From the IMG/VR virus record IMGVR_UViG_2541047836_000006: a DNA stretch of 41,742 nt; one strand, 5' to 3'. Every line of letters starts with the position of its first letter. Positions within the stretch are counted from its first letter, which is position 1. Source of the DNA: a virus (Duplodnaviria > Heunggongvirae > Uroviricota > Caudoviricetes). Under the pieces are notes generated by a model that did no database searches, was not told the origin of the DNA, and worked only from the letters and a program-made list of their open reading frames with translations. Position numbers and translations under genes: made by a program. This document shows, in pieces, positions 4,731 through 13,625 of this stretch.

Positions 4731-4863
4731 TTTTTGGGACTCCTGGCTGATTAAGTATGTCGATAAGGCGTTTCCATCCGTCACGTAATTTACGGGTGAT
4801 TCGTTCAAGTAAAGATTCGGAAGGGCAGCCAGCAACAGGCCACCCTGCAATGGCATATTGCAT
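4699..4863 (-). CDS. cIII: cIII (FtsH/HflB inhibitor, stabilises cII)
   Basis: Hand translation of minus strand from ATG at 4861-4863 gives [54 protein letters not shown] (54 aa), matching lambda cIII; absent from the ORF track because it is under 60 aa. Confidence 0.85.
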   Translation of the reverse strand: MQYAIAGWPVAGCPSESLLERITRKLRDGWKRLIDILNQPGVPKNGSNTYGYPD

Positions 4864-4935
4864 GGTGTGCTCCTTATTTATACATAACGAAAAACGCCTC
4901 GAGTGAAGCGTTATTGGTATGCGGTAACGCCGCGC

Positions 4936-5564: not shown

Positions 5565-6146
5565 ATGAACAACTCATGGTGGCAGGAACTAATGCATTTT
5601 TTCCTGCAAGGAATGACACTTAAACAGTTGATTCATATGCTAATCATCCTGATCATATTGATTATTGTTATGCCTGTAAGCGTAAAAGAATGGATAAACC
5701 TGCATAATCCAGAAATCCTTCCTCATTACTGGATGTATTACATCCTGTTGTTTTGCGTTAGCTATGTGCTTAACGGCGTTGTTAATTCCGCTTATCACGC
5801 TGTGACTGTAAGAATTGAGATATTCGCTGCTCAGAAGCGCAAATCTAAAGAAGAGAAATACGTGCAAGATTTGTTTGATTCGTTAACTCTTGGAGAAAGA
5901 GCGTATTTGGCATTCGCTGTAGCCGCTAATAACCAGCTAAAGACAGAAAAGGGAAGCCCTGAAGCAATCTCATTGCTCGAAAAAGGGCTTCTTATTCGGG
6001 TACCTTCTGCTACTGGATATCCTGAAATCGACCGTTTTGTTATCCCGGAACGCTATAGAAATGAGTGCTACATTAGGTTTGCTGGGAAGAAAGACAGTCT
6101 TATGGATGAACTTATCGCTCAGGATAAGCATGGCAAAAACAAGTAA
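5565..6146 (+). CDS. sieB: Superinfection exclusion protein B (P22-type SieB)
   Basis: 193-aa membrane protein MNNSWWQELMHFFLQGMTLKQLIHMLIILIILIIVMPVSVKEW… resembles P22 SieB rather than lambda SieB; same position as lambda sieB. Confidence 0.85.
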   Translation: MNNSWWQELMHFFLQGMTLKQLIHMLIILIILIIVMPVSVKEWINLHNPEILPHYWMYYILLFCVSYVLNGVVNSAYHAVTVRIEIFAAQKRKSKEEKYVQDLFDSLTLGERAYLAFAVAANNQLKTEKGSPEAISLLEKGLLIRVPSATGYPEIDRFVIPERYRNECYIRFAGKKDSLMDELIAQDKHGKNK

Positions 6147-6162
6147 TTAGCAAATGAATTTA

Positions 6163-6471
6163 TCATCTCGCCGTCAGTTGTTTTGATTTCCGGTAGCCTG
6201 CCGCGTAAATAGCTACGTTTGGCAGGCAAACACTTCCACTGCATTCATCTACTTTCTTGCAGCGAAGGCTTCCGAGTGATATTGCTTTTTCAGAAAGGCT
6301 TAACCGCTTTCTCGGGTCTTCCTGAACAGGTTCCTCACTGTCTGTGCCGAAGATCGAATCGATGATGTTGCAGATGGAATCACGCTCGATGGCCAGCTTT
6401 CTGCGCCGCTCATGACGGCGAGTTTTGGCATTTCCTGCAAATGTTGATTTTCCGTACACGATTACCGTCAT
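6163..6471 (-). CDS. N: N-type transcription antiterminator (P22 gene 24-like)
   Basis: Arginine-rich motif GNAKTRRHERRRKLAIERD matching the P22 N boxB-binding peptide; likely start is internal ATG at 6469-6471 (MTVIVYGKSTFAGNAK…) with SD GAGGA; cognate nutL lies upstream. Confidence 0.8.
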   Translation of the reverse strand: MTVIVYGKSTFAGNAKTRRHERRRKLAIERDSICNIIDSIFGTDSEEPVQEDPRKRLSLSEKAISLGSLRCKKVDECSGSVCLPNVAIYAAGYRKSKQLTAR

Positions 6472-6589: not shown

Positions 6590-6623
6590 GCGCTTTGTCA
6601 GCGCATCATCGAAGTTAAAGAGC
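6590..6623 (-). promoter_or_regulatory. nutL: nutL site (boxA-like GCTCTTTAAC and boxB hairpin GCGCTGACAAAGCGC)
   Basis: Minus-strand boxB at 6590-6604 is identical to the P22 nutL boxB RNA; boxA-like element at 6614-6623 lies 5' of boxB in the transcript. Confidence 0.7.
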
Positions 6624-6659: not shown

Positions 6660-6720
6660 TGATGGCGATTATAATGAACCAATAGTTCGATATTATCAAG
6701 AACTATAAGTACGAATTGTT
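6660..6720 (-). promoter_or_regulatory. Putative pL promoter/OL operator region
   Basis: Minus-strand TATAAT at 6668-6673 with an imperfect -35 (TTGATA, 20-nt spacer); AGTACG half-site at 6708-6713 shared with the OR palindrome; location inferred from the nutL/N arrangement. Confidence 0.3.
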
Positions 6721-6880
6721 TGTGGTTCATTAACTTAATGAGATATGTTTTTGATATGTAAAGGAATTTATTTTTGTAAAGATTGAAGATTGGTCAGTAG
6801 GAGAGAAAGAATTGTTTGCTGGCGTGTTAGTTCGTGGGTTAGCACATGTGCGGATGTTAAATAAGGTAGACGATCGTGAG

Positions 6881-6908
6881 GAAAAGAAAAACCGGCGCTG
6901 AGGCCGGG
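6881..6908 (-). terminator. Rho-independent terminator ending the cI accessory-gene transcript (tIMM-like)
   Basis: Minus-strand hairpin CCGGC…GCCGG (6892-6907) followed by a T-rich run, 6 nt downstream of the stop of the 6914..7813 gene. Confidence 0.6.
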
Positions 6909-6913
6909 TATAA

Positions 6914-7813
6914 TTATTTGATTATTTCTTTTATAAAGACTTCTTTCGGTTGGTATTTTTTATCTGATGATTTGAGCTGGTACGTTATTGTTATATCAGC
7001 ACGTACAGAAAATTTACCTGCAAAATCTGATGGGTTTACGTTGGGGCCAAGAACCATATTTACTCTTCGATCTATTAATCCAGGGATAACAGCAGCCCAA
7101 CCTTTCTCTGGATTGTCGAGGTCTAATGCACGGATTTCAACATCAACATCAAAATGATCCTGAGTATATGACTCTGGTGTGAAGACAACTTCAGTTGGGG
7201 CTTTTTTAATGGTTTCAGCGGGAATGGTCACTGTACCACCCCCTGTACCTATGACCATCGTAGATCCTTCGTCTGCCCTAGCTGGGGCAAGCGTCTTAAT
7301 GGAACTTTTGGCAAGAGTCTTCTTATTGGTTACCGTGCTTTCTATGATTGCTTGAAGACGGTCAGGTGAAATATTAGCCTCACCGGCACCAATATTGATG
7401 ATTGTATTGTTATTTGCTTCAAAGTGGGAGGTGTTGCTTGGAGCCATAGCCTTAGTTGCTAGAACTAAGCCATATCCAACCAGACCAATAACAACAGCAC
7501 CAACGAGAGCGTTTCTCATTTTCCCATTTCCGATCTTTGCATGAGCGCCAGCAAGAAACTTGTCCATTTCTTCTTGGCTACCAAAGAGGAGTTTAATAAC
7601 AATATCTTCATAAAGGCTTCCTGCTTCTAATCGCGCAACATGCACCGATATATCAAGGATATTAGCCCCTGTCAGTTCCTGCAAAACACCTTCTGATTGT
7701 TTTGCGATGGCCTCCCACCCTTGAAGGGAGGTAATCACATCTTTGATGCTTACAGGTTCTTTAGTTGAATAATATATGTTTTCGGTAAAGGTTAAAGATA
7801 ATTCTTGGGACAT
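6914..7813 (-). CDS. Uncharacterised single-pass membrane protein in the immunity-region accessory slot (rexAB position); candidate superinfection-exclusion/abortive-infection protein
   Basis: 299-aa ORF with SD GAGGG upstream of ATG (7811-7813); central hydrophobic helix ALVGAVVIGLVGYGLVLATKAMA; co-oriented with and downstream of cI; own terminator; AT-rich; no similarity to any protein I recognise. Confidence 0.8.
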   Translation of the reverse strand: MSQELSLTFTENIYYSTKEPVSIKDVITSLQGWEAIAKQSEGVLQELTGANILDISVHVARLEAGSLYEDIVIKLLFGSQEEMDKFLAGAHAKIGNGKMRNALVGAVVIGLVGYGLVLATKAMAPSNTSHFEANNNTIINIGAGEANISPDRLQAIIESTVTNKKTLAKSSIKTLAPARADEGSTMVIGTGGGTVTIPAETIKKAPTEVVFTPESYTQDHFDVDVEIRALDLDNPEKGWAAVIPGLIDRRVNMVLGPNVNPSDFAGKFSVRADITITYQLKSSDKKYQPKEVFIKEIIK

Positions 7814-7942
7814 CCGAGCCCTCGCTGTTTCTTTCGATTTGCTGTGTTAAGCTAATATTTTAATATCCATGTTTCTGTTTGCTTGCAGTGTGTTTCTCAC
7901 CACCATCCAAACGTACTGGTTACTAGCTATGTGATGATGAAG

Positions 7943-8650
7943 TCATGAACTTTTCAGCCATTCCCTGGCCTCGATGTCATCTAGGTGGCGAGATTGCTTC
8001 AGAATACCAGCTACATACTCCACCTTTGCTACTTGATGATAAGGCAACGTTATTGGCCTGTGGTCTTGGTTGATGCTTGTAAATTGGTATTCTCCGTCTC
8101 TGTCATAGCCAAGAACCTTGATCATGTTGTGCCCTTCAATGGTTCTGACAAACACCTCATCACCTGGGAATACTTTGGTGTTAGGCTCAATGAGTACATA
8201 TTCTCCTGATTTTATTCTGGGCCACATGCTGTCTCCTTTTACACGAAGACCAAAGGCATCTGGATCATCGCTATAAATCTTGAGCCACCCATCGCGCTCT
8301 TCGGTCATCTCGATGGCACCATCAACACCAAGAATTGCCTCACCAACCACGCGCACTAACCCTTTTTTTAATTTGCCAACAATTGAAAAAGTATCTTCAT
8401 CATTCGCTCCATTTAACGAAGTGCCGTGCTGAAGCCAAACAACATCAACGTTTAGAAATTTCGCAAGCGCATTCATTTTTTCCTGGCGTGGTAAAGACTC
8501 AGCATTAAACCATTTGCTAACGCCTTTGGACGAAAGAGAAAGGGCACGGGCTATGGCCATTCCCCTACCATGTTCATCAAGACCAGCTTCTTTACAGGCT
8601 TGCGCTAGCCGCTGGGCGAATTCTTTGCGCACTTTTTCATTCTGAACCAT
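7943..8650 (-). CDS. cI: CI-type prophage repressor (HTH N-domain plus LexA/S24-like self-cleaving C-domain)
   Basis: 235-aa ORF divergent from cro; C-terminal …FGLRVKGDSMWPRIKSGEYVLIEP… carries the S24 peptidase Ser/Lys pattern (GDSM…K); not the lambda or P22 repressor sequence. Confidence 0.9.
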   Translation of the reverse strand: MVQNEKVRKEFAQRLAQACKEAGLDEHGRGMAIARALSLSSKGVSKWFNAESLPRQEKMNALAKFLNVDVVWLQHGTSLNGANDEDTFSIVGKLKKGLVRVVGEAILGVDGAIEMTEERDGWLKIYSDDPDAFGLRVKGDSMWPRIKSGEYVLIEPNTKVFPGDEVFVRTIEGHNMIKVLGYDRDGEYQFTSINQDHRPITLPYHQVAKVEYVAGILKQSRHLDDIEAREWLKSS

Positions 8651-8728
8651 GAGTACGATACTAAAGCACTTGCAAAAACTTTCAGTTCAACCATAATGCG
8701 TACTGAAAGTACGAAAAAGGACATTCCT
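8651..8728. promoter_or_regulatory. OR/pR-pRM divergent control region with operator-like palindrome
   Basis: Candidate pR -35 TTGCAA (8670-8675) and -10 CATAAT (8692-8697); palindrome CGTACTGAAAGTACG at 8699-8713; inverted repeat ACTTTCAGT/ACTGAAAGT; extra AGTACG half-site at 8652-8657. Confidence 0.5.
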
Positions 8729-8956
8729 ATGCAAAATCTTGATGAGCCGATTAAAGGTGTCGGCATCCCTGAAGTTGCGAAGGCTTGTGGAGTTAGCGAA
8801 AGGGCTGTCTATAAGTGGCTCAAAAACGGCTTCCTCCCTAAGACTGAGTTTTTTGGGAAAACGAAATACGCATCAAAAATCGAAGAGATTTCTGGTGGCA
8901 AATATCAAGCAAGCGAAATGCTTGAAATAAGCAAAAAGAACCTTCTGGCAGCATAA
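8729..8956 (+). CDS. cro: Cro-like HTH regulator
   Basis: 75-aa product from ATG at 8729 (SD AAAAAGG 8 nt upstream); HTH motif GIPEVAKACGVSERAVYKW; first gene rightward of the OR region. Confidence 0.8.
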   Translation: MQNLDEPIKGVGIPEVAKACGVSERAVYKWLKNGFLPKTEFFGKTKYASKIEEISGGKYQASEMLEISKKNLLAA

Positions 8957-9062: not shown

Positions 9063-9362
9063 ATGGAACAAACAAATTACAGCAAACTATCACAGCGCGA
9101 CGTTGATCGCGCAGAAACAGATTTACTTATCAACCTGTCAACGCTTACTCAGCGCGGTCTGGCAAAGATGATTGGCTGTCATGAATCGAAGATAAGCAGA
9201 ACAGACTGGAGGTTTATAGCTTCGGTCTTGTGTGCTTTTGGCATGGCATCAGACATCAGTCCGATTAGCAGAGCTTTTAAGTATGCGCTTGATGAAATCA
9301 CCAATAAAAAACGCCCGGTGTGCAAGACCGAGCGTTCTGAACAAATCCAGATGGAGTTCTGA
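9063..9362 (+). CDS. cII: cII transcriptional activator
   Basis: 99-aa protein ending …TNKKRPVCKTERSEQIQMEF, matching the lambda CII C-terminus; located between cro and O. Confidence 0.9.
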   Translation: MEQTNYSKLSQRDVDRAETDLLINLSTLTQRGLAKMIGCHESKISRTDWRFIASVLCAFGMASDISPISRAFKYALDEITNKKRPVCKTERSEQIQMEF

Positions 9363-13540: not shown

Positions 13541-13625
13541 AGTCAGAGATAACAATCAACTAATACTGTTTTGCTGATTTTTGCTTGTAATTGGCGTTCT
13601 GGTCTGATTTTTGTGGAGTAAGTTG

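Follow-up and report, generated by a model that had tools for sequence, protein, structure and literature searches.

The DNA between the cI and cro genes of the window (our term for the whole 41,742-nt stretch of viral DNA that was analysed) is very probably the right operator (OR) of a lambdoid immunity switch of the 933W type, and the half-site at 6708 would be part of the left operator (OL) of the same switch; from comparison of the sequences we put the probability of this reading at about 0.93. The window belongs to a lambda-like coliphage or lambdoid prophage and encodes no stx, and its first 19.3 kb are 100% identical to temperate coliphages deposited as Lambda_2E9, 1H12, Lambda_ev087 and others. 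It displays the features of a lambdoid cI-Cro switch, namely a divergently transcribed repressor with HTH and S24 domains opposite a small HTH protein of the Cro type, pL and pR operons subject to N antitermination, and a downstream cII (Pfam Phage_CII, 9063-9362). The N protein (6163-6471, minus strand) belongs to the N_peptide family of Pfam, and O and P are of the lambda type.

The repressor is 99% identical to that of 933W, with residues 1-77, which comprise the DNA-binding domain, being fully identical and S41, K42, K46 and E51 all present. The substitutions relative to 933W (F88L, I90F and I171V) all lie outside this domain, in the linker and the C-terminal domain, where an effect on dimerisation or cleavage is conceivable. 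The elements that define imm933W, i.e. the repressor DNA-binding domain, the 15-bp operators, three OR sites, two OL sites and the cognate Cro, were all found in the window. The map of operators and promoters presented here (oR3, oR2, oR1, pM, pR, OL1, OL2 and tM) was transferred from NC_000924 (the RefSeq record of 933W), GQ499365 and PV189402.

These operators, their recognition code and their role in the lysis-lysogeny switch of 933W are already known, having been published between 2000 and 2018 and annotated in RefSeq. The value of the present annotation lies in placing a common non-Stx coliphage in the 933W immunity group. Of 5426 complete E. coli genomes, 427 carry this OR region with an identity of at least 95%. 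Membership in this group predicts cross-immunity with 933W-type Stx2 phages, as well as the low-repressor, easily induced behaviour described for the 933W switch.

The right operator and its promoters

The earlier note on this DNA had proposed that palindromes overlapping pR are repressor operators, and they proved identical to the annotated operators of 933W. The near-perfect palindrome that it had placed at 8699-8713 corresponds, at exactly these coordinates, to OR1 of 933W. Both direct reading and a script show perfect 6-bp arms flanking a central GAA; a repeat search with 6-nt seeds left this palindrome unreported, its arms being under the minimum reported length. A single base pair separates OR1 from the pR -10 upstream of it, and the site spans the position at which transcription is expected to begin. 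OR2 is located within the pR spacer; it takes in the final base of the pR -35 and overlaps the pM -35 region. The inverted repeat formed by ACTTTCAGT (8678-8686) and its reverse complement ACTGAAAGT (8702-8710) had been correctly positioned, but the former is in fact the core of OR2, which had not been seen as a complete site. OR3 extends over the cI start codon (8648-8650, minus strand) and directly adjoins pM; its right half is the AGTACG at 8652-8657, one of the recurrences of this hexamer that had been pointed out before. Across 161 bp around OR only two bases differ from 933W, at 8698 and 8722, neither of them in an operator or a promoter hexamer.

The hexamers earlier assigned to pR were recovered as the same pair by a consensus scan and map exactly onto the 'pR' feature of NC_000924. 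The same scan did not pick up pM, which is expected of a weak, activator-dependent promoter with a poor match to the consensus. Promoter starts are those of the database annotation. A search for a lambda-style cII box (TTGC-N6-TTGC) that might mark pRE found none near cro or cII, the single match being at 13571.

Table 1. Positions of the operators, promoters and genes of the predicted switch (window coordinates unless a relative is named)
Feature	Position	Strand	Sequence or basis
OL1	6675..6689	.	TGAACCAATAGTTCG; identical to OL1 of 933W and GQ499365; best-scoring 15-mer of the window
OL2	6699..6713	.	AGAACTATAAGTACG; adjoins pL -35; right half is AGTACG 6708-6713
pL (candidate)	6671..6699	-	-35 TTGATA 6699-6694, 17-bp spacer, -10 CATTAT 6676-6671; consensus scan
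Intrinsic terminator	6892..6907	-	CCGGCCTCAGCGCCGG and T run; homologous to 933W tM
299-aa gene	6914..7813	-	cI-to-tM slot; PHROG 4506, function unknown
Orphan CGTACT	7912..7917	.	no partner half-site; not an operator
cI repressor, 235 aa	7943..8650	-	HTH domain and S24 autocleavage domain; Pfam HTH_3, Peptidase_S24
OR3	8643..8657	.	TGAACCATGAGTACG; identical to annotated 933W oR3
pM (PRM), cI maintenance promoter	8658..8685	-	position from NC_000924 'pM', sequence identical in the window
pR	8670..8697	+	-35 TTGCAA 8670-8675, 16-bp spacer, -10 CATAAT 8692-8697
OR2	8675..8689	.	AAAACTTTCAGTTCA; identical to annotated 933W oR2
OR1	8699..8713	.	CGTACTGAAAGTACG; identical to annotated 933W oR1 (NC_000924, GQ499365); characterised biochemically (PMC3317979)
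cro, 75 aa	8729..8956	+	100% identical to 933W Cro; Pfam HTH families
OL3-like site, Pectobacterium and Photorhabdus relatives	L007 4990-5004; L008 4561-4575; L009 4528-4542		

The recognition rule

The 933W repressor recognizes a 15-bp site that is rotationally symmetric about the central base pair (PMC3317979, Bullwinkle et al. 2012), in which positions 2-5 are conserved as G, A/T, A and C, position 6 is T or C, and positions 1, 7 and 8 are weakly specified (PMC3317979). According to the same study a change at position 2, 4 or 5 reduces affinity more than 5-6-fold, and sites with C at position 6 are bound over 2.5 times more tightly than those with T; in the modelled contacts S41 and K42 reach positions 2-3, K42 and K46 positions 4-5, and E51 position 6, with S41A losing discrimination at position 2 and K46A all specific binding (PMC3317979). 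OR1 is the tightest natural site, binding about 10-fold better than the consensus (consensus KD 4.8 nM), from which it departs at 3, 7' and 3', T being preferred at 3/3' and A at 7' (PMC3317979). The relative KD values are 1 for OR1, 13.6 for OR2 and 26.4 for OR3; binding of the repressor to OR1 and OR2 is non-cooperative, and 933W is without an OL3 (PMC5977221). Partial filling of OR3 keeps the output of pRM low (PMC5977221; also PMC4848623).

All five sites of the window fit the resulting 15-bp rule, N-G-(A/T)-A-C-(T/C)-N3-(A/G)-G-T-(T/A)-C-N, with the left half of OR2 having A at position 2, as in 933W. The operator rule CGTACT-N3-AGTACG that had been suggested earlier captures the variant found in OR1, but the true rule is broader: half of the half-sites (5/10) have GAAC or AAAC instead of GTAC, and CGTACT is one half-site variant among these. 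It was because of this narrowness that OR2 and OR3 had not been recognized as complete sites and OL1 had been missed altogether.

The left operator and pL

The recurrence of AGTACG at 6708-6713, which the earlier note had assigned to a presumed left operator, is likewise real and belongs to OL2. OL1 fills the spacer of the candidate pL and overlaps its -10, and both hexamers of this promoter are conserved in 933W. OL2 departs from its 933W counterpart (AGAACTATTGGTACG) at 2 of 15 positions, namely 6' (C to T) and 7' (A to T), so that the differing stretch reads ATAAGTACG in the window and ATTGGTACG in 933W; OL2 of the relatives described below varies at the same two positions. Given that C at position 6 is bound more tightly than T, this OL2 is possibly slightly weaker than that of 933W, and the order of affinities within OL of the window phage may accordingly differ slightly. 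There is no OL3-like site: the best 15-mer in 6714-6913 scores 0.2 in the matrix scan, as against at least 13 for the operators.

Several further observations concern this side of the switch. A perfect TATAAT is present at 6668-6673 on the minus strand, shifted 3 bp in the downstream direction from the CATTAT that we took as the pL -10; its use as a -10 is improbable, the spacer from TTGATA being 20 bp in that case. A boxB-type stem, GCGCTGACAAAGCGC on the minus strand, is found at 6590-6604 inside a stretch homologous to the annotated nutL of 933W. Paired with this stem is an N protein whose arginine-rich motif, GNAKTRRHERRRKLAIERD, we take to be that of N of phage P22, so that the N gene joined to the 933W-type OL is not the one found in 933W. 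An Rfam scan of the whole window returned as its sole match Lambda_thermo, the cIII thermoregulator (4818-4876, minus strand, 88.5 bits). Just past N, on the strand opposite to the pL operon, there is a 193-aa ORF (5565-6146, plus strand) with an N-terminal hydrophobic stretch.

Half-sites and complete sites across the window

An enrichment of the half-site relative to the rest of the window, by which the earlier proposal was to be judged, was not observed at the hexamer level: the two strands together hold 15 copies of CGTACT/AGTACG where 9.6 would be expected, and as many were obtained in 10 of 100 shuffles. The hexamer does cluster locally, with 5 of the 15 copies falling within 6708-8713 against 0.46 expected (Poisson P about 1e-4, in a post hoc test). 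The hexamer enrichment having come out non-significant, we used a half-site matrix built from the five 933W operators to scan for full sites. The top five 15-mers of the 41.7-kb window are those starting at 6675, 6699, 8699, 8643 and 8675, i.e. OL1, OL2, OR1, OR3 and OR2, while in shuffled windows a mean of 0.66 sites reach the score of the fifth operator. This ranking is partly circular, with four of the five sites being identical to training sites, and the independent support comes from the relatives. The scan revealed no further operator-like site near OL, near OR or in the spacer between cI and the 299-aa gene, and the best 15-mer of this 129-bp spacer (7814-7942) scores 0.7.

A further recurrence of the half-site had been reported from this spacer, along with the suggestion that a repressor site located there regulates the downstream gene. 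The hexamer exists, albeit at 7912-7917, whereas 7901-7906, the position originally given, reads CACCAT. That it constitutes an extra repressor site, through which cI would directly regulate the 299-aa gene, for example as a roadblock or a looping anchor, is very improbable. It does sit between cI and the 299-aa gene, and, at 8.5 bits, it belongs with the halves of OR1 to the best type of half-site; but the other half (CGTACTGGTTACTAG) scores -14.3, and the 15-mer as a whole ranks 782nd in the window. A dimer that needs a 15-bp site and binds non-cooperatively (PMC3317979, PMC5977221) would find here an isolated half-site without a helper, when a single change at position 2, 4 or 5 alone costs more than 5-6-fold in affinity. 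Moreover, copies of this hexamer occur in the window at about the level of chance, and it is missing in 933W and the Salmonella phage SI8, where 11 bp (CTCTTCAGGCC in 933W) separate CGT from ACT. The window lacks these 11 bp, and the hexamer thus exists only at the junction and is therefore not an operator.

This part of the window also shows signs of mosaicism. A mosaic junction is apparent just downstream of the cI stop, with 933W-type homology starting at about 7915 (7912-7926 aligned with 5040-5075 of L004). DNA matches to immunity regions of the H-19B type extend over no more than the C-terminal half of cI (query 16-471), which points to a recombination point inside cI.

Conservation in relatives

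To obtain relatives we scanned one genome per species with the cI protein, and compared the window with seven of them: Pectobacterium, Cedecea, Dryocola, a Serratia MAG, two Photorhabdus species and the Salmonella phage SI8. Their repressors are 44-88% identical to cI of the window. All seven have three matrix matches at identical offsets, in the arrangement OR3-17 bp-OR2-9 bp-OR1, and they likewise retain OL1 and OL2, again 9 bp apart. When the eight sequences were aligned without gaps, all 18 columns corresponding to positions 2, 4 and 5 proved invariant, as compared with 14 of 27 columns at positions 1, 3, 6, 7 and 8, 3 of 9 in the remaining spacer and 2 of 15 downstream of OR1. OR2 is invariant in seven of the eight sequences, and the variation that is seen is of the biochemically tolerated kind, i.e. 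C to T at position 1, A/T at position 3 and T/C at position 6. Comparison of the motifs of OL and OR in related phages, which had been put forward as a check, shows that sites and spacing are kept and that positions 2, 4 and 5 do not vary in the OR alignment. To judge by the aligned columns, this conservation pattern is that of a protein-binding site, and it does not rely on the match between the window and the 933W training set.

In Pectobacterium and both Photorhabdus species we observed an extra OL3-like site (e.g. TAAACCATAAGTACA) 17 bp beyond OL2, a distance that mirrors the spacing between OR2 and OR3; the two-site OL of 933W may thus be a derived state. A separate case is that of Escherichia albertii (L006, with OR upstream of cI at 341), whose repressor is 98% identical: its OR1, CGTGCTGAAAGTACG, has G in place of the otherwise invariant A at position 4, and one extra A is present between the pR -35 and OR2. 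This may represent a decaying prophage or an operator mutant.

The conservation pattern also bears on whether the repeats are merely chance recurrences of a short word in AT-rich intergenic DNA, devoid of sequence-specific function. The window-wide count of the hexamer is compatible with such a view, as is the appearance in shuffled windows of 15-mers scoring like OR2. Yet the five full sites are positioned exactly at the two promoters flanking cI and match the experimentally defined operators of 933W, and the contacted positions stay strictly constant from genus to genus, whereas their flanks vary. Since the sites correspond to footprinted operators and show this pattern of conservation, chance can be set aside as scarcely credible. 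Hardly any likelihood attaches, either, to a role of the OR1 palindrome in RNA, as a 5' hairpin of the pR transcript or a minus-strand terminator: the fold of 8695-8735 (41 nt) does contain a 6-bp hairpin (-8 kcal/mol, z = -2.4) and a terminator scan flags 8713-8699 on the minus strand, but with the -10 at 8692-8697 the pR start is expected near 8704, inside the left arm, so that part of the hairpin would be missing from the mRNA. The 'terminator' of the minus strand has three G-C pairs in its 6-bp stem and a tail (CATTATGGTT) with no T run, and is located upstream of pM. As to the paired changes at 1/1' in the relatives (C..G to T..A), they keep the dyad symmetry of the DNA where protein binding is only weakly specified, and are explained equally well by the symmetry of a protein site.

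The 299-aa gene and the cI-to-tM slot

The gene downstream of cI occupies the slot that ends at tM, a feature labelled in NC_000924 as 'tM; putative terminator for pM transcript'. The corresponding slot of 933W harbours stk, which is reported to be controlled by pRM and to be expressed in stable lysogens alone (PMC3430580). The 129-bp spacer between cI and the 299-aa gene contains no promoter-like or terminator-like site in a scan that was crude, such that a weak internal promoter could escape it. By its position, the 299-aa gene is probably the second gene of the PRM operon, co-transcribed with cI. Being placed between the cI stop and tM, behind a spacer free of recognizable promoters and terminators and in the slot that stk holds in 933W, it is likely to be repressor-dependent.

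The 299-aa protein showed no Pfam match above the cut-off and no PADLOC match, and a Foldseek search of its model against the PDB yielded only TM-scores around 0.2. The AlphaFold model (mean pLDDT 85) has two beta-rich domains joined by helices, with one hydrophobic helix in the centre, at about residues 102-123. We recovered 56 homologues of about 300 aa, from Enterobacterales and a Candidatus Accumulibacter MAG. Some of these are found as cargo in other settings: in Serratia (L047) on a P4-like island, where a P4-like primase is the neighbour, and in Accumulibacter (L048-L050) on a Mu-like phage, within the head module. The arrangement of cI followed by the 299-aa gene is seen in 150 of the 5426 complete E. 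coli genomes, whose copies of the gene are all at least 99% identical and hence uninformative for comparison of the spacer. Among the relatives the gene does not travel with the repressor, as SI8 and Pectobacterium have unrelated genes in the slot. This distribution is that of a moron, and we regard the 299-aa gene as a candidate lysogen-expressed moron.

A more far-reaching proposal, which we put forward tentatively and consider rather doubtful, has two parts: that the 299-aa protein could be a new lysogen-expressed exclusion or defence factor, switched on by the repressor via pM in the manner of lambda rexAB, and that the OL2 variant together with the OL3-like sites of the relatives may signify that the affinity hierarchy and looping behaviour of 933W are not general to imm933W-type phages.

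Proposed working of the switch

In what follows, our own observations are the sequence identity of proteins and sites, where these lie with respect to the promoters, and the conservation across genera, while binding, affinities and non-cooperativity are taken from the published work on 933W. As the proteins and sites match those of 933W, binding in the order OR1 > OR2 > OR3, without cooperativity, is to be expected by analogy in the window phage. The cI dimer would bind 15-bp symmetric sites composed of half-sites of the form N-G-(A/T)-A-C-(T/C)-N. OR1 would be bound tightest, blocking pR; occupation of OR2, beside the pM -35, would activate pM; and binding at OR3, over the cI start, would repress pM. 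At the other end OL1 and OL2 (6675-6713), in the absence of an OL3, would block pL. Since binding is predicted to be non-cooperative, occupancy should follow intrinsic affinity (OR1 : OR2 : OR3 about 1 : 14 : 26), and a partly filled OR3 would hold the repressor at a low level in lysogens. The 299-aa gene would be expressed along with cI from pM (and from pRE during establishment) in a transcript ending at tM, and would thus depend on the repressor while having no operator of its own.

Comparison with known systems

The closest known system is 933W itself, with which the window shares an identical repressor DNA-binding domain and Cro, an OR1, OR2, OR3 and OL1 that are the same base for base, the spacing OR3-17-OR2-9-OR1 and OL1-9-OL2, the same pR, pM and tM, and the lack of an OL3. 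It differs from 933W in OL2, where it has T-A and T-A at 6' and 7' in place of C-G and A-T, in the changes at 8698 and 8722, and in the three cI substitutions. The cargo between cI and tM is also different, consisting of the single 299-aa gene in the window as opposed to L0084, a RuvC-like gene, stk and L0081 in 933W. Furthermore, the window combines this immunity region with an N that is P22-like (its motif being presumably the P22 one) and with lambda-type O and P, and has no stx.

The resemblance to lambda is one of overall organization: the divergent cI and cro, a tripartite OR over pR and pRM, the S24 autocleavage domain in cI, the division of labour among the OR sites (strongest binding at OR1, activation of pRM through OR2 and its repression through OR3), and the accessory genes co-transcribed with cI (rexAB in lambda). 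Unlike in lambda, the sites are of 15 bp rather than 17 bp and unrelated in sequence, and OL has only two of them; going by the 933W work there would also be no pairwise cooperativity and no effect of an OL3-OR3 loop on pRM (PMC3317979, PMC5977221). The immunity regions of SI8, Pectobacterium, Cedecea, Dryocola, Serratia and Photorhabdus share with the window the operator rule, the architecture of OR and the invariance of positions 2, 4 and 5, while differing in the bases at positions 1, 3, 6, 7 and 8, in the cargo that follows cI and, in the case of Pectobacterium and both Photorhabdus species, in the presence of an OL3-like site.
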